A DNA stretch of 64,000 nt from a plasmid, in sequence record NZ_CP012741.1; one strand, written 5' to 3'. This document shows positions 44 through 18,575 of the stretch, one piece after another. The translations under genes were made by a program, and so were the position numbers. A model generated the notes under the pieces. It was given only the letters and a program-made list of their open reading frames with translations, did no database searches and was not told the DNA's origin. Position 1 is the first letter of the stretch. Each line of letters opens with the position of its first letter.

Positions 44-427
44 ATGGAACATTATCAACACCTAATTTTGAAAGGTTTAATCAATGGCGGCGGCAGCTCT
101 AGCGAAACGTATGTTTACCAGTTATTAACTGGCAATGTTTCTGACCAGGGGGGCTCGGTTTCTCACATGTGGGGATATTTAGACAACCCACTGAAAGAAA
201 CGCTAATCGAAATCTTTGCTGATATTTGCTCGCTCGATTTGACCAACAAAACAGACCGTCAAATCGTCCCTCTCTTGATTGATTACATGGCGGAGAAATC
301 AGGTCGAAGTGAGTTTTTTAAAGTGAATAACCGCCGCGATATTGAACGCATGAGTGATGATGAATATGAGGGTGGCATTCAAGATCTGATCCGAGCTAAG
401 AAAGTTCAGCTATTAGACCGCGAGTAG
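44..427 (+). CDS. hypothetical protein (127 aa), first gene of an operon of small co-directional ORFs
   Basis: ORF-track ORF; ATG preceded by gggactaac; tightly followed by further small ORFs that have good SDs. Confidence 0.4.
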   Translation: MEHYQHLILKGLINGGGSSSETYVYQLLTGNVSDQGGSVSHMWGYLDNPLKETLIEIFADICSLDLTNKTDRQIVPLLIDYMAEKSGRSEFFKVNNRRDIERMSDDEYEGGIQDLIRAKKVQLLDRE

Positions 428-438
428 AGGGAAAGTAG

Positions 439-603
439 ATGTTTGAAGCACAGCAAAACGTTCACGTTTACATACCGGATTCAGTGAACGGCAACGCAGT
501 AATTTTAGAGCGCATTGAGCGTGATTATGGCGTTGTTTATTCGGTTCAGTTGGATGGTTCAGACGAGACTATGATCGTCAATGAATCTCAACTAATGGCA
601 TAG
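439..603 (+). CDS. small hypothetical protein (54 aa), not in ORF track
   Basis: ATG at 439 with SD agggaaag 6 nt upstream; stop tag 601-603; packed 11 nt after the preceding ORF. Confidence 0.35.
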   Translation: MFEAQQNVHVYIPDSVNGNAVILERIERDYGVVYSVQLDGSDETMIVNESQLMA

Positions 604-613
604 GGGGTGTAAG

Positions 614-910
614 TTGTCACGTCCATTGCTCGATGATGCTGTACTAAAGCTGATTGATGCAAAACTGCTGCTAAACGGTCACGTTACCAGTAAAGATATT
701 TATCGTCATTTGGGCTTAGGCCGTCAAAAGGTGAGTAAGGTGTTTCAAGACTATTTAGCCGCTAATCCAGATTCGATGATCTACGTTCCTGCCAAGAAAA
801 AATACATGGCTACCGACTCTTTCAAACCGTGTTTTCTCGGTGACGTTAAAGCGGGTGAGTTTGTCGATGCATTAGTCACAGTTTTTGGAACATTCACTAA
901 CAACGAATAA
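614..910 (+). CDS. hypothetical protein (98 aa, TTG start)
   Basis: ORF track; aggggg SD before TTG. Confidence 0.4.
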   Translation: MSRPLLDDAVLKLIDAKLLLNGHVTSKDIYRHLGLGRQKVSKVFQDYLAANPDSMIYVPAKKKYMATDSFKPCFLGDVKAGEFVDALVTVFGTFTNNE

Positions 911-923
911 CGAGGGAAATTAG

Positions 924-1151
924 ATGCAGTATGAAACAGATCCAAAAGGTTTGTCATGGCCAATCAAGCCTTCACTTATCATTGATGATATTGCCGCAGG
1001 AAGCGTACATGTTTTCTTATCACCAGAGGTTCCGGTGTCCACTTTTTCACTTAAGCAATCATTCGAACATATGACATTTAAGGGTGAAGCCAAAGAAAAA
1101 TGGATCGAGGTACTTCGTGGCATCGCTGACGAACTAGAAAAACAGGGGTAA
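924..1151 (+). CDS. hypothetical protein (75 aa)
   Basis: ORF track; SD gagggaaa upstream of ATG. Confidence 0.4.
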   Translation: MQYETDPKGLSWPIKPSLIIDDIAAGSVHVFLSPEVPVSTFSLKQSFEHMTFKGEAKEKWIEVLRGIADELEKQG

Positions 1152-1188
1152 AAACACGGGTATATGTAGGCTTTATAGGGGGATAAGT

Positions 1189-1527
1189 ATGGCTGATATT
1201 TTTATTAACCTGGATGAACCATTGTTTGTTCCTAGCGTGGATATTTCACTTCTCGATATGGTGAAATTTGGCAATTTTACTTGGCCTACAGGTGCAACTT
1301 GCGTTACTCAAGAGTGCGATGGTGAATTGCTTTGGTGGAGCGCGTCTGTTGGTGATGTTACGGCTGCTCGACAAGTAGCAAAACCAGATACTGGTTTGAT
1401 GCCTCTTATTGGCTTAGGTGCTCAAGTACATGCTGATTACTACCTGGCGAATGGTCAAGAAGTGGTTGCAAATGACTGGCAAAAAGCTGTAGTTACGATA
1501 GAACAATTCACTGGTTTGGAGTCGTAG
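1189..1527 (+). CDS. hypothetical protein (112 aa)
   Basis: ORF track; SD aggggga upstream. Confidence 0.45.
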   Translation: MADIFINLDEPLFVPSVDISLLDMVKFGNFTWPTGATCVTQECDGELLWWSASVGDVTAARQVAKPDTGLMPLIGLGAQVHADYYLANGQEVVANDWQKAVVTIEQFTGLES

Positions 1528-1533
1528 GAACAT

Positions 1534-1818
1534 ATGAATCTTAAATTTTCAAGAACACAGCATGATCAGGCTCTTGTTTTATCTACTTTAAAAATTCAAG
1601 CTGCAAAGATGCAAGGTCTTGAGGGGCTAGTAAATTGTTTACGTGATCTGCAATTGAGTTATGAGGCTGCTTTGCAACAAGCCATTCAATTTACCACCGA
1701 CAATAACGGCACAGTTGAAACTTTAGATGATGGGGTGACTCGGTTAACATTGAGTGATTTTCAGGTTGATTGCTTTCGTCCTTATTCTGACATCGATCGT
1801 TTTTATTTTGAGTATTGA
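1534..1818 (+). CDS. hypothetical protein (94 aa)
   Basis: ORF track; SD aggaa upstream; 6-nt spacing to preceding ORF. Confidence 0.45.
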   Translation: MNLKFSRTQHDQALVLSTLKIQAAKMQGLEGLVNCLRDLQLSYEAALQQAIQFTTDNNGTVETLDDGVTRLTLSDFQVDCFRPYSDIDRFYFEY

Positions 1819-1919
1819 TAACATTTAACTTATTTTATTTATTTAACTTATTTAGCTTATTTTTTTTGTTTAATTCAATTAACCTATTCCTCATGCCGGT
1901 CTAAATTTCCTTGTTTTAT

Positions 1920-2358
1920 TGGCCAGTGCGTTACCGCTGCGCGGTCGGGCTTTTCGCTGGGCGGCACACCGCTGCGCTCGTATCGCTAACCTGAGCCGCG
2001 ATATCGAGCGAGCTCGATGCGTCTCTAGGTTCCAGATACCCAATCCCTAACGCCTCCGCTACTGCGTAGCTGCGCCTCGTCGTGCCTCCTCGTTGCGTTT
2101 AACTGATTTCAACTAAGTTCGAGTAAGGGCTTGGTTTTTTATGCGCGAGTTTTCCTTTCAACTCGCATCACATTACGGGCTCGCAAGCTGTTAAACCGTC
2201 TCTCAACACAACCTGGTTTGCAAGGGAAGTAAACGCTGCATCCCTAAAGCAACAAGTTGCTAAGGGCTGCTAGCCCCTTGTCAATCCAGAACGATGTTAA
2301 GAGGCCGGACAGCTAAGCGGCTCCGAAAAGTGATACTCAAACAGAAAGGAAACTCCTC
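1920..2358 (+). repeat. Copy 1 of a conserved ~430-nt GC-rich, hairpin-dense non-coding leader, preceded by an AT-rich tract (1819-1919); the identity continues into the first 34 codons of the downstream gene (to 2460)
   Basis: Near-identical to 4877-5300 by direct comparison, with one 15-bp indel and a few substitutions; multiple stem-loops such as gcgagtt..aactcgc and caacaag..gggct.gct.agccc..cttgtc; no conserved ORF on either strand. Confidence 0.8.
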
Positions 2359-2862
2359 ATGGCGCAACAAAACACAACCCCAACTCTCACTAACTTGAAT
2401 TCAGCAACCAGCGTCTCGCCGCTGGACCGCGAAAGCTCACCTAAAAATGATATCTCTTGTCTGGCTTTGTTGAATGCTCGTCGCGCTATCAAACGAGCGC
2501 ACTCTTTGAGTTATGTCGTGAAAAAAGTGCGTCTTGCCAAGGAGCGTTTGAGCCAAAAGGAAAAGCAAAAACGTATCGCTATCGCTGAACTTAAGCAATC
2601 AACACTCTATCCATGTATTCAAAAACTGATTGGAGAAAAGCGCTGTTTCACTTTTAAGGAGGTTGAGCAGCTATCTCTATCTCTTTGTGAAAGTGGCCTT
2701 GATTGCTGGACTGTGGTGATGGTAGGCAGTGCGCTTTCTCATGGGGCGGTAGTGTTTGCTCACTATAAAAGTATTGCGCCGGCACTGGCATTTAGAGCCA
2801 CTGAAAACGGGTATCAACTAACGTCATTTCATTTCAATTATCTAGATAAAAAAGAGGCTTAA
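2359..2862 (+). CDS. N-terminal part of an ArdC-N (DUF1738)-like ssDNA-binding protein; starts with the shared 34-aa leader MAQQNTTPTLTNLNSATSVSPLDRESSPKNDISC; likely continues into 2865-3173 after a -1 shift
   Basis: SD aaaggaaa; C-terminal part (LCESGLDCW..., NGYQL) resembles the N-terminal half of the ArdC-N domain; the stop lies 3 nt before the next ATG. Confidence 0.5.
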   Translation: MAQQNTTPTLTNLNSATSVSPLDRESSPKNDISCLALLNARRAIKRAHSLSYVVKKVRLAKERLSQKEKQKRIAIAELKQSTLYPCIQKLIGEKRCFTFKEVEQLSLSLCESGLDCWTVVMVGSALSHGAVVFAHYKSIAPALAFRATENGYQLTSFHFNYLDKKEA

Positions 2863-2864
2863 TT

Positions 2865-3173
2865 ATGTGCAATATCAATGCTGTCACTCAGTCTGTTTAT
2901 TCCGCAAAAAACCAAGAACTTTTAGACGAACACAAGCAAAAATTCGCGCTTTCTTCTGAGCAATGGGCGGGTTTTCGTCAATGGGTTGAGGCTGGTCGAA
3001 AAGTGAAAAAGGGCGCGAAGGGCTGCGAAATCATGATGGTTTGCGAAAAGAAAGTGGAAAGCGAAGGCAAACAAGAGGGAGATGAAAACAAAAAACGCCA
3101 GGTGATTAAATCTGTTTATGTGTTTAACAAAGATCACACCGAAGCGTTAGAGCAATCTAGCAAGTCACACTAA
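2865..3173 (+). CDS. C-terminal half of the ArdC-N / DUF1738 domain (WAGFRQWVEAGRKVKKGAKG ... VIKSVYVFNKDHTE)
   Basis: Motif match to ArdC-N W.TFKQA..GG.VRKGEKG ... Y.VFNADQ; frame 0 is open from 2850, upstream of the ATG, consistent with joining to 2359-2862 through the A6 run at 2848-2853. Confidence 0.6.
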   Translation: MCNINAVTQSVYSAKNQELLDEHKQKFALSSEQWAGFRQWVEAGRKVKKGAKGCEIMMVCEKKVESEGKQEGDENKKRQVIKSVYVFNKDHTEALEQSSKSH

Positions 3174-3239
3174 AAAAGAAGCCTTAGCTTGGTGCAACAA
3201 GCTAAGGCGGTACTCACTACCCAAATAAAGGTAATAGCT

Positions 3240-3563
3240 ATGTACAGCACCAATGTAATCGAAAATAAAGAACAATGCTACTTTCCAGCGTCCATTGATT
3301 TTGATTTAGGCGAAATCGTCGTGACTCAAGGCGTTATCAAGATGCTCGATATTCTGCCAGTGGATCTATTGCAACCTTTCTTAGCTCGCCACAAAGGCGG
3401 TGATTGGGGGCATGTCTGTGTTCAAGATAAGCAGCAAAATGATCATGCAACACGTTACGGCGACCGCATCCTTTCTAGTTATAAGTTCTGTGAACAGTGT
3501 ATTTGGATTATTACCGAAGCTGACCGCAGCGTAACCACTATCTTACTTCCTAGCGAATACTAA
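3240..3563 (+). CDS. hypothetical protein with conserved-looking C-terminus (HKGGDWG ... IWIITEADRSVTTILLPSEY); start adjusted to MYSTNV
   Basis: ORF track 3189-3563; internal ATG at 3240 has SD aaagg 9 nt upstream. Confidence 0.45.
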   Translation: MYSTNVIENKEQCYFPASIDFDLGEIVVTQGVIKMLDILPVDLLQPFLARHKGGDWGHVCVQDKQQNDHATRYGDRILSSYKFCEQCIWIITEADRSVTTILLPSEY

Positions 3564-3600
3564 CCACGGAGCGGAGGGCGAAGCCCTCTGAAAAATGCAT

Positions 3601-3753
3601 ATGATCACTGTCAATTTCTGGAGCGAAAAAGAACAAGCGTATTCTTGTGTCTGGGAGCAAGGGGGGCGCGTAGTGAGCGGCTATCTAACCGAGGCTCAAT
3701 TAGAAGAAGAGAAAAGGTTAGGTGAAGAAATTCAATGGGAATGCTGCCCTTAA
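3601..3753 (+). CDS. possible small ORF (50 aa, Cys-rich C-terminus ECCP)
   Basis: Open frame not in track; weak SD; low support. Confidence 0.2.
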   Translation: MITVNFWSEKEQAYSCVWEQGGRVVSGYLTEAQLEEEKRLGEEIQWECCP

Positions 3754-3797
3754 AAGACACGGTTAAACGGGCGGCGTTGCCGCCCTAAGTAGGTTGT

Positions 3798-4016
3798 ATG
3801 AGTCAAAACAATTCGTCATTGATTGGTGAATTTTCTTCCTTGGATTCTAGAATTGCTGAAACAGAAGAAAATATTCGTCGCCTTAACGTCACACTCACTA
3901 AAACGTATTTTCACCCTCAGTATTTGGAACATTGCAGAGGTTACTTAGCTCACTATGAAACCGTTTTAGAGGAGTTAAAATCTCTCAAAAAGGCAAAAGA
4001 AAAAAGTGAGTTGTAG
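3798..4016 (+). CDS. hypothetical small protein (72 aa, charged/helical)
   Basis: ORF track. Confidence 0.4.
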   Translation: MSQNNSSLIGEFSSLDSRIAETEENIRRLNVTLTKTYFHPQYLEHCRGYLAHYETVLEELKSLKKAKEKSEL

Positions 4017-4046
4017 CTTGAAAGTTACGTAACTTTCAAGCTACAA
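4011..4046. promoter_or_regulatory. 36-bp perfect palindrome ttgtagcttgaaagttacgtaactttcaagctacaa, located 7 nt upstream of the higB-like toxin ATG; candidate TA operator and/or terminator hairpin
   Basis: Every position verified as symmetric about 4028/4029. Confidence 0.6.
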
Positions 4047-4053
4047 TAAGGGC

Positions 4054-4353
4054 ATGATATATAATATCAAGCGCACCGAAATCTTTAATGATTGGCTGAG
4101 GGAACTAAAAGACCCTCAAGCGCGAGGTTCAATCGCCGCGCGAGTGCAACGACTTACCCAAGGATTGAACGGAGACGTGAAACCTGTTGGTGCTGGTATC
4201 AGTGAACTCAGGATACATGTCGGAAAGGGTTACAGGGTTTACTTTAAGCGAAGCGGCAAGCAGATCATTGTTTTGTTGTGTGGCGGTAACAAGAAAACTC
4301 AAAACCAAGACATTGAACTAGCAAAGCAGCTTGCTCAAGAACTTGGACTGTAA
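4054..4353 (+). CDS. higB: Type II toxin, HigB/Gp49-like addiction-module killer protein (RelE/ParE superfamily)
   Basis: 99 aa; strong family pattern EIFNDWL..L.D..AR..I..R..RL..G..GDVKPVG.G.SELRIH.G.GYRVYF...G..I.LLCGG.K..Q..DI..A. Confidence 0.8.
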   Translation: MIYNIKRTEIFNDWLRELKDPQARGSIAARVQRLTQGLNGDVKPVGAGISELRIHVGKGYRVYFKRSGKQIIVLLCGGNKKTQNQDIELAKQLAQELGL

Positions 4354-4428
4354 CCATAAGATAAAGCCAGCTAATCACTGGCTTTTTGCTCAAACCTTGA
4401 TTTCTAAACACGACTATTTGGAGTCTCT

Positions 4429-4725
4429 ATGTCTAAAAATACAGCTATGCTCGCAGATTTTGACCCTGCTGAGTATCTTGATACCCCAGAAGCTATACAG
4501 GCGTATCTCGATGAAGCTGTAGCCTCTGGTGATGCAGCTTTTATCAGTCAATCTCTTGGTGTGATTGCTCGCGCTAAGGGTATGACAGAACTTGCAGAAC
4601 AAACAGGATTATCCCGAGAAGCGCTATATAGAACGCTTAGCCAAAAGGGAAACCCTAATTTTAAAGGATTTATGGCCATCATTTCTGCTTTGGGCATCTC
4701 TTTGAAATTGAACGTTCATGCTTAA
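4429..4725 (+). CDS. higA: Type II antitoxin, HigA-family HTH addiction-module antidote protein
   Basis: 98 aa; FDPAEYLDTPEAIQAYL..A...GD.A.I..SLG.IARAKGM...A..TGLSRE.LY..LS..GNP.F family pattern; toxin-then-antitoxin order typical of HigBA. Confidence 0.8.
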   Translation: MSKNTAMLADFDPAEYLDTPEAIQAYLDEAVASGDAAFISQSLGVIARAKGMTELAEQTGLSREALYRTLSQKGNPNFKGFMAIISALGISLKLNVHA

Positions 4726-4733
4726 AAAAGAAA

Positions 4734-4758
4734 GGCCGCTAACGCGGCCTTTTTTATT
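4734..4758 (+). terminator. Rho-independent terminator ggccgc-taac-gcggcc + T6
   Basis: 6-bp GC stem, 4-nt loop, then ttttttatt. Confidence 0.7.
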
Positions 4759-4876
4759 CCCATCATTCCGGATAGATGCCATTTTTAACGTTATCTTATT
4801 TTGCTTAATTATTTTATTTTCATTATTTTAATTATTTGTTTTATTTTCCCTGTTTACCTCGACTTTGCTGTTTTAC

Positions 4877-5300
4877 TGGCCAGTGCGTTACCGCTGCGCG
4901 GTCGGGCTTTTCGCTGCGCTCGTATCGCTAACCTGAGCCGCGATATCGAGCGAGCTCGATGCGTCTCTAGGTTCCAGATACCCAATCCCTAACGCCTCCG
5001 CTACTGCGTAGCTGCGCCTCGTCGTGCCTCCTCGTAGCCTTTAACTGATTTCAACTAAGTTCGAGTAAGGGCTTGGTTTTTTATGCGCGAATTTTCCTTT
5101 CGACTCGCATCACATTACGGGCTCGCAAGCTGTTAAACCGTCTCTCAACACAACCTGGTTTGCAAGGGAAGTAAACGCTGCATCCCTAAAGCAACAAGTT
5201 GCTAAGGGCTGCTAGCCCCTTGTCAATCCAGAACGATGTTAAGAGGCCGGACAGCTAAGCGGCTCCGAAAAGTGATACTCAAACAGAAAGGAAACTCCTC
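4877..5300 (+). repeat. Copy 2 of the conserved structured leader, preceded by an AT-rich tract (4756-4876); identity continues through codon 34 of the downstream gene (to 5401)
   Basis: Direct comparison with 1920-2460; lacks the 15-bp ggcggcacaccgctg insert present in copy 1. Confidence 0.8.
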
Positions 5301-6683
5301 ATGGCGCAACAAAACACAACCCCAACTCTCACTAACTTGAATTCAGCAACCAGCGTCTCGCCGCTGGACCGCGAAAGCTCACCTAAAAATGATATCTCTT
5401 GTGCGGTTGATGGAATTAAGCAAAGTGAAAAAAATTTATTCCTGGCGTCATTCAAAGCAGGAAAGCTTCGCAAGAACGCGAAGAAAGTCATTCAAAAGCT
5501 ACTTGATTGCTGTGACTCGTTAATCTTGAAAACGCAATCTATGGGGCTTGATGATTGTTGGAACGCAAACGAGCCGCAAGAGTATGACAAAGCCAAGTTT
5601 TGGGAGTGGTATGAGAGCAACTATAGCGAAATGGTGATTTACTTAAAAACTCGTGATGGCTTTCTGTCAAAGGTCGAAATTTGCGATTGTATCTATCATT
5701 TTTCTGATGATCTTGTTATGCACTTTTCCATTGATCAAGAGGAGCCAGCAAAGCCTAAAGTTTCATTTGCACAAGTTTGTGAGGCGCTTGCGCAAGGGTA
5801 TATCTCGCCCCTCAATCATGATGGTAAATATCCGTCACCCGATCCAGAAAAGAATAACAGTGATGATTCTAGACGTGTTGTCAGTTTTGGTGATTATCAA
5901 GCGCGTATCGAATCTAAAAAAGAACGATTTAGCGAGCTATCTAATAAGGCTCAAAATGAATCTGTCCTTTTTTATCAGGCGTCGAAAGATAGAGCCAGTT
6001 TAATTCCATTCGGTCAGCCAATTTTAGTTGGCCATCATTCAGAAAAACGAGCGAGAAAAGATGCTGAACGTATTTGGCGTGATATGGGTAAATCTGTTCA
6101 TGCTCAAGAAAAAGCCGACCATTACGAAAATAAAGCAAATAATGTCGGTTCGGCTGGTATTGCTTCCGATGATCCCGAAGCCGTTAGTAAACTAAAAGAA
6201 AAATTACTGAGTTTGCAAAACAGTCAAGAGGTTATGAAGTCAATCAACAAAGTGATTCGCTCTCATAACTTAACAGATGAAGATAAAATTGAGTTTATGG
6301 TTCACACTCACAGATTTTCAGAATCGCACGCTAAGAATATCTTGTTTCCTAAAACGGGCTCACCTGGCTTTGCTGATTACGCATTGAAAAACAATAATGC
6401 AAATATCAGGACGATAAAACAAAGAATTGAAGAACTTGAAAAGCTTCATAGTCAAAAACCGTTTGATCAAAATGGTGAAGTTGATGGTTTTAGTTATCAT
6501 CTTTATGAAGAGGAAGGTCGCATTAAATTTCGTTTTGATGAAATACCCAGCGATTCCGTGAGAAGTATTTTAAAGTCAAACGGTTTTAAGTGGTCGCGAT
6601 TTAGTGGGGCGTGGGTTAGAAAAATAACGGCCAATGCGGTTTCTTCTACGCGATACATCTTAAAAATGTTCACAACCCTTTGA
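5301..6683 (+). CDS. DUF3560-like plasmid protein (460 aa) carrying the same 34-aa N-terminal leader as 2359
   Basis: Motifs GQPILVGHHSEKRARKDAERIW, ASDDPEAVSKLKEKL, MKSINKVIR and C-terminal RIKFRFDEIPSDSVRSILKSNGFKWS...GAWVR recall the DUF3560 family; assignment is from memory. Confidence 0.45.
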   Translation: MAQQNTTPTLTNLNSATSVSPLDRESSPKNDISCAVDGIKQSEKNLFLASFKAGKLRKNAKKVIQKLLDCCDSLILKTQSMGLDDCWNANEPQEYDKAKFWEWYESNYSEMVIYLKTRDGFLSKVEICDCIYHFSDDLVMHFSIDQEEPAKPKVSFAQVCEALAQGYISPLNHDGKYPSPDPEKNNSDDSRRVVSFGDYQARIESKKERFSELSNKAQNESVLFYQASKDRASLIPFGQPILVGHHSEKRARKDAERIWRDMGKSVHAQEKADHYENKANNVGSAGIASDDPEAVSKLKEKLLSLQNSQEVMKSINKVIRSHNLTDEDKIEFMVHTHRFSESHAKNILFPKTGSPGFADYALKNNNANIRTIKQRIEELEKLHSQKPFDQNGEVDGFSYHLYEEEGRIKFRFDEIPSDSVRSILKSNGFKWSRFSGAWVRKITANAVSSTRYILKMFTTL

Positions 6684-6764
6684 ACGCATGACGCCTCATT
6701 GTTAAAATGGGGCGTTTTAATTTTCACGTACTTCAATCTAAATAGATTGGTTTGATGGTGGTTT

Positions 6765-7211
6765 ATGAAAAAGATTTCACTGTTGCCTTTGCTTATCGTT
6801 TCTCAATCTGTAAGTGCATTTTGTTTTGATGAGGCGGGGGCGTATTACAATGTTGATCCTACATTATTAAAAGCTATCGCAAAAGTTGAAAGTAGTCTTA
6901 ACCCGTCTGCTTACAACGAAAATAAAAATGCTGCTGGTAAAATCATTAGTCAAGATTTTGGTTTAATGCAAATTAACTCAAGTTGGTTTGAAAAGCTTTC
7001 GGATTTTAATGTGAATGAGCAGAATGTTTATGAGCCTTGTTTTAATGTGTCTTTAGGGGCTTGGGTGCTTAGTTCTAACTTTGCTAGTCACGGTTATAAC
7101 TGGAATAGTGTCGGGGCGTATAATGCGGGTTTCTCCAAGCGCACTGAGAACGCCAGAAAAATATACATCCAAAAAGTTAAATCTGCTTATTATTCTGAAA
7201 AAGTTAAATAA
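6765..7211 (+). CDS. Conjugation-associated lytic transglycosylase (Slt domain; F orf169/P19/IagB-like) with signal peptide
   Basis: MKKISLLPLLIVSQSVSA signal; AKVESSLNP...GLMQINSSW catalytic-Glu and GLMQ motifs. Confidence 0.8.
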   Translation: MKKISLLPLLIVSQSVSAFCFDEAGAYYNVDPTLLKAIAKVESSLNPSAYNENKNAAGKIISQDFGLMQINSSWFEKLSDFNVNEQNVYEPCFNVSLGAWVLSSNFASHGYNWNSVGAYNAGFSKRTENARKIYIQKVKSAYYSEKVK

Positions 7212-7768
7212 CACACCTTGCACCGTCATGGTGCAAATTTGATCCTCTTCAGCCTTTTGGCTCCCTCTTTGTTTCAACCTCGATCCTCTCAGTTACACTC
7301 TATTCAATCGCCATAGTGCGGCTTTTTTGTGTTGCCCTGGTCAATTTCTCTCGGGCCCGCACAGTTGAAGCCGGTGATGTCATGCTGACTTTTTACTTTC
7401 TCTGAAAGCGACCACACACCACGGCGCATTGTAAACAATGCGAATGGTTGTCTGAGAAATCAATAAGTGCATATAAAACAATGACTTAAATTGCTGTTTT
7501 GAGAGATATTGCCATTAGGAAAAATTTTCAAAATCCTAACTAAATAGCCGACAAAATCCCAATGTAAAATCATATATATAGAATGAATTGTCATTGATCC
7601 CTTTTGGAGTAAGGCTCCAACCTTGGTTTCAATGCAAAAATATTTAAAATTAATTGAATTGTAATTTAACCCTTGTGACATAAGGCTATGGAGGTGATTT
7701 TAAAGGAGTGATACAATGGTTTTACATTGATAATTAATTGGTTTTCATTGAGGAGAAAAAGCTAAATT

Positions 7769-17981: not shown

Positions 17982-18575
17982 ATCACTTCCTTTGAATAAG
18001 AGTTGCAGGGGCGAACGGTTGTATTACGTTGTAAAGGCTCAATCAGGGAAACAAAGAGTCCCGTTTTTTTGAGCCGTTATTTTGATGAGTACACTTGCGT
18101 TAAATCCCTCTTTGAGAGGTTTTTGAGGTAGAAAAATATCGCTTTGTTACCGTGTTACAGTTACTGGTGTTAAAGGTGAAGATTAAGTAAGATGAGGGAG
18201 TTGCTTGGCGCTCATCGGAACAGGGAACGTTTTCTTTAGGGAAAAGTCTTGAGTTGCGAGAGTCTGAAATGCGCTTTCGCTGCCAAGCAGCCATGACGAT
18301 TAATCATGAATAGACGCTCTTATAACCAGTACTAGGCTCTCTCGCGTGCTGGTTTTTTTGCCTTAAATCTAGAGTGGGAACGAAAAAAGCCTTAGAATCG
18401 CCGTGGGTGCTTTTGGTGTTCGACCAAAAGTAGTTCGAAAGATTTGCTGGCGGTAGAAAATCAAAAACCCCGAATGAACTGTAAATTCAAACGAGGTTTT
18501 AGAAATGTTCCTAAGCAAAACAGATCTTAGCCTCTATCTCGATTTATTTCAATGCAAAATTGAAGGAGGCAAGTT

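Follow-up and report, generated by a model that had tools for sequence, protein, structure and literature searches.

The closest described systems are the class 1 single-stranded DNA (ssDNA) promoters, namely Frpo1 and Frpo2 (ssiD) of the F plasmid and ssi1-3 of ColIb-P9/pESBL, which sit 5' of early-entry genes on the transferred strand of the leading region. They occur as two to three near-identical dispersed copies per plasmid, each an imperfect hairpin of ~300-330 nt flanked upstream by additional GC-rich hairpins. Of the two strands, the transferred one is the better-folding, and its mismatches are rich in G. Frpo was originally recognized as a signal for priming (Masai & Arai 1997, cited in PMC9849209 and PMC7736820), an additional role as a replication roadblock is described for an F ssDNA promoter (bioRxiv 10.64898/2026.01.09.698686), and in F the flmAB genes lie between Frpo1 and Frpo2 (PMC9849209). 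Other leading-region hairpins, unrelated in sequence, have been proposed as ssDNA promoters or shown to be such (by 5'-RACE in PMC12672017), namely class 2/3 (ssp2; klcA/ardA and M.EcoGIX of pESBL) and the Frpo'/Frpo* candidates (Samuel et al. 2024). Here, we analysed a 64,000-nt stretch (the window) of record NZ_CP012741.1, which its sequence assigns to a Vibrio vulnificus MOBF/MPF_F conjugative plasmid. The window carries a duplicated element that resembles class 1 elements in its probable leading-region location, dispersed near-identical copies, hairpin form and strand bias, and here too a toxin-antitoxin pair lies between two near-identical copies. We propose, with a probability of roughly 0.65, that each copy is an ssDNA promoter cassette of the leading region, working like Frpo/ssi but belonging to a sequence family specific to Vibrionaceae.

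The duplication reported in the preliminary description was confirmed by alignment, with bounds (Table 1) slightly different from the 1920-2460 and 4877-5401 given there and an identity above its ~97%: of the 534 ungapped columns, 5 hold substitutions (99.1% identity; positions 1919, 2094, 2097, 2149 and 2160), and one 15-nt indel is the only other difference. As stated there, the indel is an insert between CGCTG direct repeats in copy 1, preceded by CGCTG (1955-1959) and itself ending in CGCTG; nearly the same 15-mer follows another CGCTG elsewhere in the module of p.J383 (L003 10919-10934). Also in agreement with that description, the 330 nt upstream of the ATG contain no conserved ORF, an Rfam search of the element returned no family match, and the RBS, the ATG and the first 34 codons (MAQQNTTPTLTNLNSATSVSPLDRESSPKNDISC) are identical at the 3' end of both copies, with unrelated proteins past codon 34 (BLASTP E 0.44). 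The DUF3560-like cargo of copy 2 was correctly recognized, whereas an ArdC-N-like cargo had been wrongly assigned to copy 1: the 167-aa ORF fused to this copy has no Pfam family match, and the ArdC-N protein is encoded by the separate next ORF (2865-3173). The tracts upstream of both copies are AT-rich as reported (10-12% GC), but a consensus scan found no sigma-70 site in them. No equally extreme tract precedes the homologous copies, and the conservation of the element does not extend to these tracts.

Table 1. Positions of the two modules, their parts and neighbouring features in the window
Feature	Position	Strand	Remarks
Module, copy 1	1912-2460	minus	Folding strand (= probable transferred strand); repeat, alignment, homologues, nhmmer copies
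Module, copy 2	4869-5402	minus	Offset +2942 relative to copy 1 after the indel; without the 15-nt insert
5' accessory hairpins, copy 1	1912-2101		Followed, in plus coordinates, by main hairpin, small hairpin and conserved tail
15-nt insert GGCGGCACACCGCTG	1960-1974		Copy 1 only; 1955-1974 with flanking CGCTG
Main imperfect hairpin, copy 1	2102-2405	minus	~300 nt, apex near 2254; minus-strand MFE, covariation
Main hairpin, copy 2	5044-5347	minus	Fold of copy 2, copy 1 offset
Candidate -10 GACGGT	2195-2200 (copy 2: 5137-5142)	minus	17 nt from the -35
Candidate -35 TTGCAA	2218-2223 (copy 2: 5160-5165)	minus	3' arm; pairs with TTGACA of the 5' arm
Predicted 5'UTR	2312-2358	plus	Predicted start ~7 nt past the -10, ~2312 (copy 2: ~5254); ladder geometry
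Leader ORF, copy 1	2359-2460	plus	In-frame fusion to the 167-aa protein (ORF 2359-2862)
Leader ORF, copy 2	5301-5402	plus	Fused to the DUF3560 protein (5301-6683)
Small hairpin CCAGCG-TCTCGC-CGCTGG	2408-2425 (copy 2: 5350-5367)		Within codons 17-23
Conserved tail	2426-2460		Codons 23-34, ends in AAAAATGATATCTCT; alignments, flat entropy
RelE/ParE-type toxin; antitoxin	4054-4353; 4429-4725	plus	Between the repeats; annotation of the near-identical plasmid pVv180806
Terminator-like stem-loop	4725-4758		3' of the antitoxin gene, just upstream of copy 2
Putative oriT core	7405-7441	minus	Nic-like GTGGTGTGT/GGTCGCTTT (7422 down to 7405; slash, predicted nick) and inverted repeat

The minus strand is probably the transferred one, because an F-like nic motif is found on it at ~7413/7414, and this analogy would place copies 1 and 2 within the leading region. 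The motif lies between the SLT gene and traI, and in minus-strand reading the inverted repeat GCATTG-TTTA-CAATGC (7426-7441) comes just before it. In F, the motif GGTGT/GGTGC is likewise on the minus strand, beside the SLT gene, and three related Vibrio plasmids (L003, L006, L008) keep the window motif in the interval from the SLT gene to the traI side. By analogy with F, we take the nick to fall between 7414 and 7413. Every gene between 44 and 7211 is encoded on the plus strand, and the transferred strand would therefore be their template.

The search for relatives of the module gave 149 places spread over 80 plasmid records, every one from Vibrionaceae, with 2-7 copies per plasmid, and 8 of the 10 matches in a scan with one genome per species were from Vibrio. 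Within 10 loci every copy is co-oriented with the leading genes that it precedes; each full copy adjoins a conserved RBS and ATG at a constant distance, and short forms of ~150 nt, with the same core, stand directly 5' of radC and other genes. The restriction to Vibrionaceae and the existence of a short form distinguish the family from class 1 elements, as does its promoter role, which is here predicted. No description of the family was found in the ssDNA-promoter literature searched, and the known Frpo/ssi elements and published candidates show no significant similarity to it (best nhmmer E 0.16). At the sequence level, no homology to Frpo is detectable apart from a shared 12-mer, GTTCAT(A/T)TACCC, present in 7 of 24 Vibrio copies, in F Frpo2 and in Salmonella Frpo*7; in the ladders of L008a, L010a and F Frpo2 it occupies the same 3'-arm bulge, below the apical stem.

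In copy 1, the right arm of the main hairpin extends over the predicted 5'UTR, the RBS and the ATG as well as codons 1-16. The search for homologues and covariation, proposed earlier as a check, yielded many homologues and strong covariation in both hairpins. When 120 pairs were scored in 24 copies, with slid alignments and 500 shuffles as controls, 80.8% of cells were paired (39-45% in the slid controls), 69 pairs had changed on both sides and compensatory cells numbered 295, against 46-106 in the controls; none of the 500 shuffles reached the observed value. The small hairpin is 98.5% paired in the 24 copies, with the compensatory variants CCAACG/CGTTGG, CAAGCG/CGCTTG and CCACG/CGTGG. Folding z-scores of the module range from -5.5 to -8, and ladder drawings gave the same hairpin architecture for divergent copies. 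A local stem noted previously, gcgagtt/aactcgc, did not survive: it is broken in copy 2 by the substitutions at 2149 and 2160 and lost in homologues, and its bases belong instead to the long-range hairpin. The analysis supports the initial view of a modular, structured, non-coding regulatory cassette placed before different conjugation-associated genes, and among the options then considered the evidence favours an ssDNA-structured element.

The best promoter candidate in this hairpin combines the boxes listed in Table 1. Its -35 occurs at the homologous position in most copies (TTGCAA, TTGTCA, TTGTTA, TTGAAA) and contains the invariant or near-invariant columns T249 and A253. Within the predicted fold, the candidate -10 has its A (2199) in a mismatch and its T (2195) in a TTTA bulge (2192-2195) kept in all ladders drawn; these bases would be A-11 and T-7, and their columns are invariant (A272) and near-invariant (T276). 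The same -10 is found in the short forms upstream of radC, and some copies have a second candidate (TTAACA, 17 nt, AATGAT or TGTGAT) near a 7x5 internal loop. GACGGT is a weak match to TATAAT (2-3 of 6 positions), and a simple sigma-70 consensus scan of both strands of the element found no site; the same scan found none in the validated F Frpo2 either. The supplement sequences of several class 2/3 and Frpo'/Frpo* elements show, on the transferred strand, a 3' arm with CCCTTG(C) and then a -10-like box, in the orientation of the Vibrio candidate, although sequence, spacing and host group differ. The predicted 5'UTR includes the most conserved block of the module, GCGGCTCCGAAAAGTGATACTCAA, and the RBS AAAGGA (2345-2350), and RNA 2312-2470 is unstructured (z +1.1), with the RBS free.

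The weakness of these boxes is one argument for regarding the hairpin as a functional ssDNA structure other than a promoter, such as a priming site, a roadblock to complementary-strand synthesis or a protection against SSB or nucleases, with ordinary promoters at work. Structure, strand bias and leading-region context fit such a role equally well, Frpo was first discovered as a priming signal, an F ssDNA promoter doubles as a roadblock, and the small hairpin and tail (2408-2460) are outside what the promoter model explains. This role alone, however, sits poorly with the constant distance between full copies and a conserved RBS and ATG, and with the position of the short forms directly 5' of gene starts. 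In addition, the operon of copy 2 needs its own promoter, because an intrinsic-terminator-like hairpin lies just upstream, where no consensus duplex promoter was found. We therefore regard this explanation as unlikely, although the two roles are not mutually exclusive, one and the same element serving both in F.

The comparison of strands bears on two RNA-based explanations. The DNA fold of copy 2 reaches -83.8 kcal/mol (z -8.0) on the minus strand against -73.2 on the plus (mRNA-sense) strand, and the minus strand is the more stable in 23 of 24 copies when DNA parameters are used (mean -9.1 kcal/mol); with RNA parameters this holds for all 24 (mean -27.7 kcal/mol). Its 1x1 mismatches contain G in 132 cases and C in 23, the same mismatches being C.T, C.C and A.C on the plus strand, and GC skew flips only within both modules; counted by alignment column, G:T and A:C pairs (125 vs 102) do not differ significantly. 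G-rich mismatches on this strand are the signature of known ssDNA promoters: F Frpo1 and Frpo2, together with the ColIb ssi repeats (two) and the candidates of Samuel et al. (seven) that were tested, showed the same strand signature, by 6-20 kcal/mol, which was absent from F ssiE, an element with no long stem-loop.

These data argue against the earlier suggestion of a riboregulator or long structured leader in the mRNA, which would start in the AT-rich tract and control translation of the fused gene. The read-through plus-sense RNA does fold well (-129.8 kcal/mol, z -6.3; z -4.1 in a further fold), with the RBS and first codons paired, and both window copies follow AT-rich tracts. As in leader-peptide attenuators and structured 5' leaders, a short ORF, placed 5' of the regulated gene or fused to it, is embedded in sequence with extensive secondary structure, and the read-through RNA would bury the RBS. 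Unlike in attenuators, the structure under selection belongs to the complement of the mRNA, with no Rfam match; the plus sense folds worse in every copy with RNA parameters and carries the C-containing mismatches, the AT tracts are neither as extreme in homologues nor endowed with a consensus promoter in the window, and members of the family occur only in leading regions of conjugative plasmids, in transfer orientation. A riboregulator thus seems improbable. The minus-strand bias would fit equally well an RNA transcribed from that strand, for example a cis-antisense RNA over the RBS and start codon that represses the leading genes as sok or FinP do, and the TATCAT of the conserved tail, in minus-strand reading, resembles a -10 box. 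Such an RNA is still less probable: the expected -35 region is cargo-specific and unconserved, the minus-strand 3' end has no terminator-like T-run, a ~300-nt hairpin is unlike known antisense regulators, and the signature is also that of known Frpo elements, where no antisense RNA is involved.

The leader codons, up to the sharp module boundary at the end of the tail (2460), evolve, according to the alignments, as structured nucleic acid rather than as a peptide. Entropy is flat over codon positions (0.49/0.48/0.52, 0.28/0.42/0.36 and 0.35/0.39/0.39 bits), with no third-position excess of changes in the 34 codons; compensated frameshifts rewrite the middle of the peptide (SDQRFAAGH instead of ATSVSPLDR); compensatory changes in the small hairpin alter codons; and in two plasmids (L004, L005) the leader is a stand-alone ORF of 35-40 aa, the cargo having its own RBS. 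The shared residues are accordingly very doubtful as a targeting or regulatory peptide (a T4SS translocation, degradation or localisation tag), even though the frame is open in every copy, frameshifts being compensated, and leading-region proteins of an F-like plasmid reach recipients by translocation (PMC8406263).

The position of the start codon sets the module apart from related systems. The F repeat ends ~20 nt before the ATG and each F gene has its own RBS, whereas in Vibrio the RBS, the ATG and 16 codons are part of the stem and the module reaches 34 codons into the ORF, hence the shared N-termini; none of the class 2/3 and Frpo'/Frpo* descriptions has a translation start and leader codons embedded in the stem. 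Integron attC sites, common in Vibrio, are also strand-specific folded ssDNA hairpins with conserved extrahelical bases and modular gene cassettes. However, attC sites are integrase recombination substrates of 50-150 nt located 3' of cassettes, while the Vibrio module is ~550 nt long, upstream, overlaps the start codon, always lies in plasmid leading regions and was not seen associated with an integrase.

Returning to the ssDNA promoter cassette, transfer would start at nic (~7413/7414) and the minus strand would enter the recipient 5' to 3', copy 2 first and copy 1 after. The single-stranded minus strand of each module would fold into a ~300-nt imperfect hairpin with accessory hairpins, whose stem would imitate a duplex promoter, TTGCAA, a 17-nt spacer and GACGGT being the best candidate, with two key -10 bases unpaired beside the conserved TTTA bulge on the non-template arm. 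Host RNA polymerase would initiate near 2312 (copy 2: 5254) and transcribe the 5' arm outward, producing a short mRNA that lacks structure and leaves its ribosome site accessible, until complementary-strand synthesis removes the hairpin and turns the promoter off. The lower stem would have to complement the DNA just past the start, so that the module would bring its own 5'UTR, RBS, ATG and leader codons, and the cargo behind it would be expressed by in-frame fusion or translational coupling. On our best reading, these cassettes form a new Vibrionaceae family of Frpo-like ssDNA promoters, each bringing along a 5'UTR, RBS and leader ORF, and unrelated early-entry genes would have one N-terminus because the hairpin overlaps the RBS and first codons.

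Comparison of the sequence with itself revealed a direct repeat whose two copies, hereafter called modules, differ by 5 substitutions in 534 ungapped columns (99.1% identity) and by one 15-nt indel; the duplication with a common 34-codon start that a preliminary description had noted is thus real. Both copies end with AAAGGA, 7–8 bases, an ATG and the 34 identical codons, beyond which the cargo proteins are unrelated. In copy 2, the leader continues into a DUF3560 protein, as had been proposed, whereas the ArdC-N protein that had been assigned to copy 1 is encoded by a separate ORF, next after the copy 1 fusion ORF, which itself encodes a 167-aa protein without a match in Pfam. The claim that no ORF is kept within the element also holds, as no frame is open across the copies over the 330 nt upstream of the ATG. 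A near-identical 15-mer, GGCGGCAC(A/T)CCGCTG, occurs in copy 1 (1955–1974) and in the related locus L003, after CGCTG in both cases and at different module positions. The insert forms a mini-hairpin (GCGG-CACA-CCGC), and recurrent templated insertion or gene conversion could be the cause of its presence at two sites.

Matches to the element were found only in plasmids of Vibrionaceae, with 2–7 copies per plasmid, and most of these plasmids are conjugative and of the MOBF/MPF_F type; V. vulnificus pVv180806 is nearly identical to the window. Four full or near-full copies were observed in the mobilizable MOBP plasmid pMBL96 of V. alginolyticus, upstream of ParB-like, DUF3560, RadC and DinI-like gene clusters, indicating that the cassette is not bound to one relaxase type. 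Chromosome 2 of Vibrio sp. F13 also contains an 18-mer identical to part of the conserved 5'UTR block, possibly inside an integrated conjugative element. A mobile element or MITE was set aside from passing observations, namely the strictly fixed orientation of the copies with respect to the genes and, in the fetched annotations, no transposase beside them. Elsewhere on the plasmid, a match to the sok antitoxin RNA of Rfam, above the gathering score, implies a hok/sok-type locus; Hok/Gef genes are annotated in pVv180806.

Positions of the features in the window and in loci fetched from its relatives (L numbers)
Feature	Locus	Position	Strand	Remark
Module, copy 1	window	1912–2460
15 extra nt of copy 1	window	1960–1974		preceded and closed by CGCTG
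Main hairpin of copy 1	window	2102–2405	minus	apex near 2254
Small hairpin	window	2408–2425		next to main hairpin
Conserved tail	window	2426–2460
Candidate −35, TTGCAA	window	2223 down to 2218	minus	17 nt to candidate −10
Candidate −10, GACGGT	window	2200 down to 2195	minus
ArdC-N ORF	window	2865–3173
Palindrome TTGTAGCTTGAAAGTTAC/GTAACTTTCAAGCTACAA	window	4011–4046		perfect, 36 nt
Toxin–antitoxin pair with terminator-like hairpin	window	4054–4758
Module, copy 2	window	4869–5402
Lytic transglycosylase gene	window	6765–7211	plus	SLT domain
Putative oriT core	window	7441 down to 7405	minus	inverted repeat GCATTG-TTTA-CAATGC, then GCC GTGGTGTGTGGTCGCTTT
F-like nic motif GTGGTGTGT/GGTCGCTTT	window	7405–7422	minus	between SLT gene and 119-aa gene beside traI
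Possible alternative pairing, copy 1	window	1980–1999 with 2317–2336
Possible alternative pairing, copy 2	window	4922–4941 with 5259–5278
sok RNA match	window	18405–18569	plus	63.9 bits
15-mer	L003	10919–10934
Full or near-full modules	L004	16212–26803
18-mer	L022	7638–7655
Annotated CDS	L007	7086–7598		leader ATG at 7275
Short form	L002	34777–34885
Short form	L005	17993–18104
Short forms	L006	23220–23373; 23998–24182
Short form	L010	26730–26873

Used as an nhmmer query, copy 1 matches its own reverse strand over 2097–2407 and is thus a large imperfect palindrome. When the minus strand was folded as DNA, this region gave a single long hairpin, followed by a small one, with folding z-scores of −5.5 to −8. 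To assess conservation of the fold, we aligned 24 copies, which came from 11 plasmids. As RNAalifold retrieved no more than a portion of the stem from the MAFFT alignment, the fold of copy 1 was mapped onto the alignment. Over the 120 pairs scored, 80.8% of the cells were paired, against 39–45% when partners were slid by 1–3 columns, and compensatory cells numbered 295, against 46–106 in the slid controls. Both sides had changed in 69 pairs and none of 500 shuffles reached the observed pairing values. The small hairpin is paired in 98.5% of the cells (variants CCAACG/CGTTGG, CAAGCG/CGCTTG and CCACG/CGTGG), another small covarying hairpin (ATCGAGC-GA-GCTCGAT) lies in the 5' part of the module, and the internal loops and bulges are unchanged in the divergent copies drawn as ladders. 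The homologues (149 places in 80 records) and the covariation by which the preliminary description had proposed to judge the element are therefore both present, the latter strongly so. The element had not been recognised as a named RNA family and, in agreement, Rfam gave no match to it at the gathering threshold; within 1700–5500, the weak matches obtained at E<=10 miss both copies. An alternative pairing is possible for the most conserved block, GCGGCTCCGAAAAGTGATAC, as 20 nt in the 5' portion of the module are 75% complementary to it.

Perfect Watson–Crick stacks have equal energy on either strand, so that any difference between the strands arises from mismatches and loops. With DNA parameters, 23 of the 24 copies folded more stably as minus strand than as plus strand (mean −9.1 kcal/mol); with RNA parameters, all 24 did (mean −27.7 kcal/mol). 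With the skeleton folded without G-T pairs, its 1x1 mismatches are G.A (78), T.T (35), G.G (34) and G.T (20), those containing G outnumbering those containing C by 132 to 23, while the mRNA-sense strand would carry at the same positions C.T, C.C and A.C, the least stable mismatches. The GC skew, positive across the flanking genes, is negative inside the two modules only; the bias is thus local and not a background composition. Counted per alignment column, G:T and A:C (125 vs 102) did not differ significantly, the divergent copies being probably misaligned, and strand tests on each sequence were used in place of this count. A long structured 5'-UTR or riboregulator, as had been suggested, should have its best structure on the mRNA-sense strand; as this strand is the less stable one in every copy with RNA parameters and its mismatches would be C-rich, a structured RNA leader is unlikely.

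Known ssDNA promoters provide a comparison. In plasmid F (Frpo) and in ColIb-P9 (ssi), the transferred strand forms hairpins of ~330 nt that recruit RNA polymerase for early, transient expression of the leading genes (PMC9849209, PMC12672017, PMC11541004), and further classes, unrelated in sequence, were recently defined through RNA-seq and 5'-RACE (PMC12672017). Our controls comprised 13 published sequences: F Frpo1 in two overlapping versions, Frpo2, ssiE, two ssi repeats of ColIb-P9 and seven candidates of Samuel et al. In all except ssiE, the transferred strand was favoured by 6–20 kcal/mol and the mismatches were G-rich; F ssiE, which is without the long stem-loop, showed no strand bias. 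From its strand bias, the Vibrio element groups with ssDNA promoters, although an RNA of the minus strand would formally fit as well; such an antisense RNA is considered unlikely.

The genes from 44 to 7211 are all on the plus strand and head into a 560-nt gap, bounded by the lytic transglycosylase gene on one side and on the other by a small minus-strand gene followed by traI and traD. The F-like nic motif of this gap is kept at the equivalent place in three related Vibrio plasmids. In F, the nic region (GCGTGGGGTGT/GGTGCTTTT) lies on the minus strand with the leading genes on the plus strand and adjoins the SLT gene. By analogy, the segment listed as putative oriT core is likely to be one, and the minus strand would be the transferred strand, entering from 7413 down to 1. 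Both modules would then belong to the leading region and lie on the strand that serves as template for the genes behind them, a layout described for leading regions generally (PMC11541004). The position and template strand typical of class 1 Frpo/ssi elements would therefore be found here, by analogy with F, together with a stable stem-loop of ~300 nt on that strand.

The Vibrio element resembles Frpo/ssi in position, orientation, size, copy pattern and strand signature. Frpo1 and Frpo2 are 92% identical, 5 kb apart and have flmAB between them; the Vibrio copies are 99% identical, 2.9 kb apart and have a RelE/ParE-type toxin and antitoxin, with a terminator-like hairpin behind them, exactly between the direct repeats. 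This pair would be lost if the repeats recombined, and flmAB has been proposed to guard F against such a loss. A perfect palindrome lies directly upstream of the toxin gene, and may be an operator of the pair or a terminator. The two systems differ in that the F repeat stops before the RBS, whereas the Vibrio stem takes in the RBS, the ATG and leader codons.

At the sequence level, an nhmmer profile of the element gave no match in the F leading region, and its best E-value against 11 known or candidate Frpo/ssi sequences (PMC11541004 supplement) was 0.16, which is not significant. Homology as sought with BLAST by Samuel et al. (2024) thus does not link the families, which have one 12-mer in common, GTTCAT(A/T)TACCC, present in 7 of the 24 Vibrio copies, in F Frpo2 and in one Salmonella candidate. 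Drawn as ladders, two Vibrio copies (L008a and L010a) and F Frpo2 have it as an unpaired bulge of the 3' arm, just below the apical stem; in the window copies it has diverged to GTTTACTTCCC. The Vibrio family itself was not found described in the literature searched.

In the other plasmids, the homology spans the ATG and stops sharply at the same point, after AATGATATCTCT. The partners of the leader are ParB-like proteins of ~605 aa, DUF3560 proteins and many small proteins without family, and in two cases the leader ends after 35–40 codons, with a separate gene and its own RBS behind it. The preliminary description had considered a targeting or regulatory peptide, for which an excess of third-position changes and a strictly kept frame would be expected. 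Instead, variation, measured as entropy, is equal at all three codon positions, and in copies of L003, L004 and L010 the small hairpin is flanked by one inserted and one deleted nucleotide, a change that keeps the nucleotides but converts ATSVSPLDR into SDQRFAAGH; these features, with the leaders that stand alone, make a functional peptide unlikely. A database search with a 40-aa leader ORF gave no match, such a query being too short for that database. As its variation shows, the leader is constrained as nucleic acid, and the frame that stays open indicates that translation from its ATG matters. Codons 1–16 form the lower right arm of the main hairpin and codons 17–23 the small hairpin, while the role of the conserved tail is unexplained by a promoter model. 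In V. cholerae pSA7G1 (L007), the annotated CDS begins inside the hairpin, 189 nt upstream of the leader ATG, a start that is probably too far upstream.

In a scan with the sigma-70 consensus, the two copies and the AT-rich tracts were all negative; the scan equally missed the validated F Frpo2 and so does not discriminate. Inspection of the 3' arm revealed a candidate −35, TTGCAA, paired with TTGACA of the opposite arm, and a candidate −10, GACGGT. Among the 24 copies, the second T and last A of the former and the A and last T of the latter are invariant or nearly so; in the fold, this A (A-11) is mismatched and the T (T-7) is the first base of a TTTA bulge kept in every copy. A similar site recurs in most copies, with spacers of 16–18 nt, and some have a second candidate (TTAACA, 17 nt, then AATGAT/TGTGAT) next to a 7x5 internal loop that is conserved; the TTGCAA and GACGGT boxes are weak by consensus. 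By our own reading, promoter-like boxes can also be found on the 3' arm of the published candidates in transferred-strand orientation. These boxes are conserved and −35/−10-like, whereas the 5' arm shows no conserved boxes, and a promoter there that points to the apex was therefore dropped. Short forms of ~110–185 nt, limited to the upper hairpin, immediately precede radC, a JAB-domain gene and others; the candidate −35/−10 site and the GACGGTTTAA bulge region are kept in them and the leader ORF is missing.

If the boxes are right, transcription would use the 5' arm as template and proceed from the apex side to the base and into the gene. The start, ~7 nt past the candidate −10, is predicted at G2312 (5254 in copy 2) and would leave a 47-nt 5'UTR holding the most conserved block of the family. 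With the second candidate, the start would instead fall near 2340–2345. RNA from this start is predicted to be unstructured (z +1.1), while in RNA with both arms the hairpin refolds and the RBS is paired (−129.8 kcal/mol, z −6.3). One could imagine a self-contained two-state switch, a model that we consider rather doubtful, whereby the cargo would be expressed at entry only: the hairpin of the incoming ssDNA would act as promoter for a freely translated transcript beginning in the right arm and, once the plasmid is double-stranded, read-through RNA with both arms would refold and bury the RBS and start codon. In this model, as the stem encodes 5'UTR, RBS and leader ORF, the cassette would be a portable plug-in unit, and homologous recombination from copy to copy could exchange genes for anti-defence and establishment between plasmids of Vibrionaceae. 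The GTTCATnTACCC bulge found in both families would then be a core signal that these ssDNA promoters share with enterobacterial Frpo.

Taken together, the element is a conserved and strand-specific structure, folded by the transferred strand within the leading region of a conjugative plasmid. We propose, with a probability of roughly 65%, that it represents a new family of ssDNA promoters in Vibrionaceae, in which the translation start is built in; the main alternative is that the folded ssDNA serves a role other than that of a promoter.

With ssDNA promoters, conjugative plasmids express anti-defence and establishment genes ahead of complementary-strand synthesis. To our knowledge, such promoters have so far been characterised only in enterobacterial IncF and IncI plasmids, mostly without comparative evidence. 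With its dozens of diverged copies, the Vibrionaceae family supports a folded transferred strand unusually strongly, through both covariation and strand bias. It also yields a simple computational signature, a more stable transferred strand with G-rich mismatches, that is valid for F and ColIb too, and the motif in common with Frpo may point to a functional core. A promoter hairpin overlapping the translation start would offer a structural explanation for the common N-terminus of unrelated leading-region proteins. The genes behind the copies, among them those of DUF3560 proteins, ParB-like proteins, an ArdC-N operon and many unknown small proteins, are likely to act early on entry, on plasmids carried by pathogens of fish, shellfish and humans.
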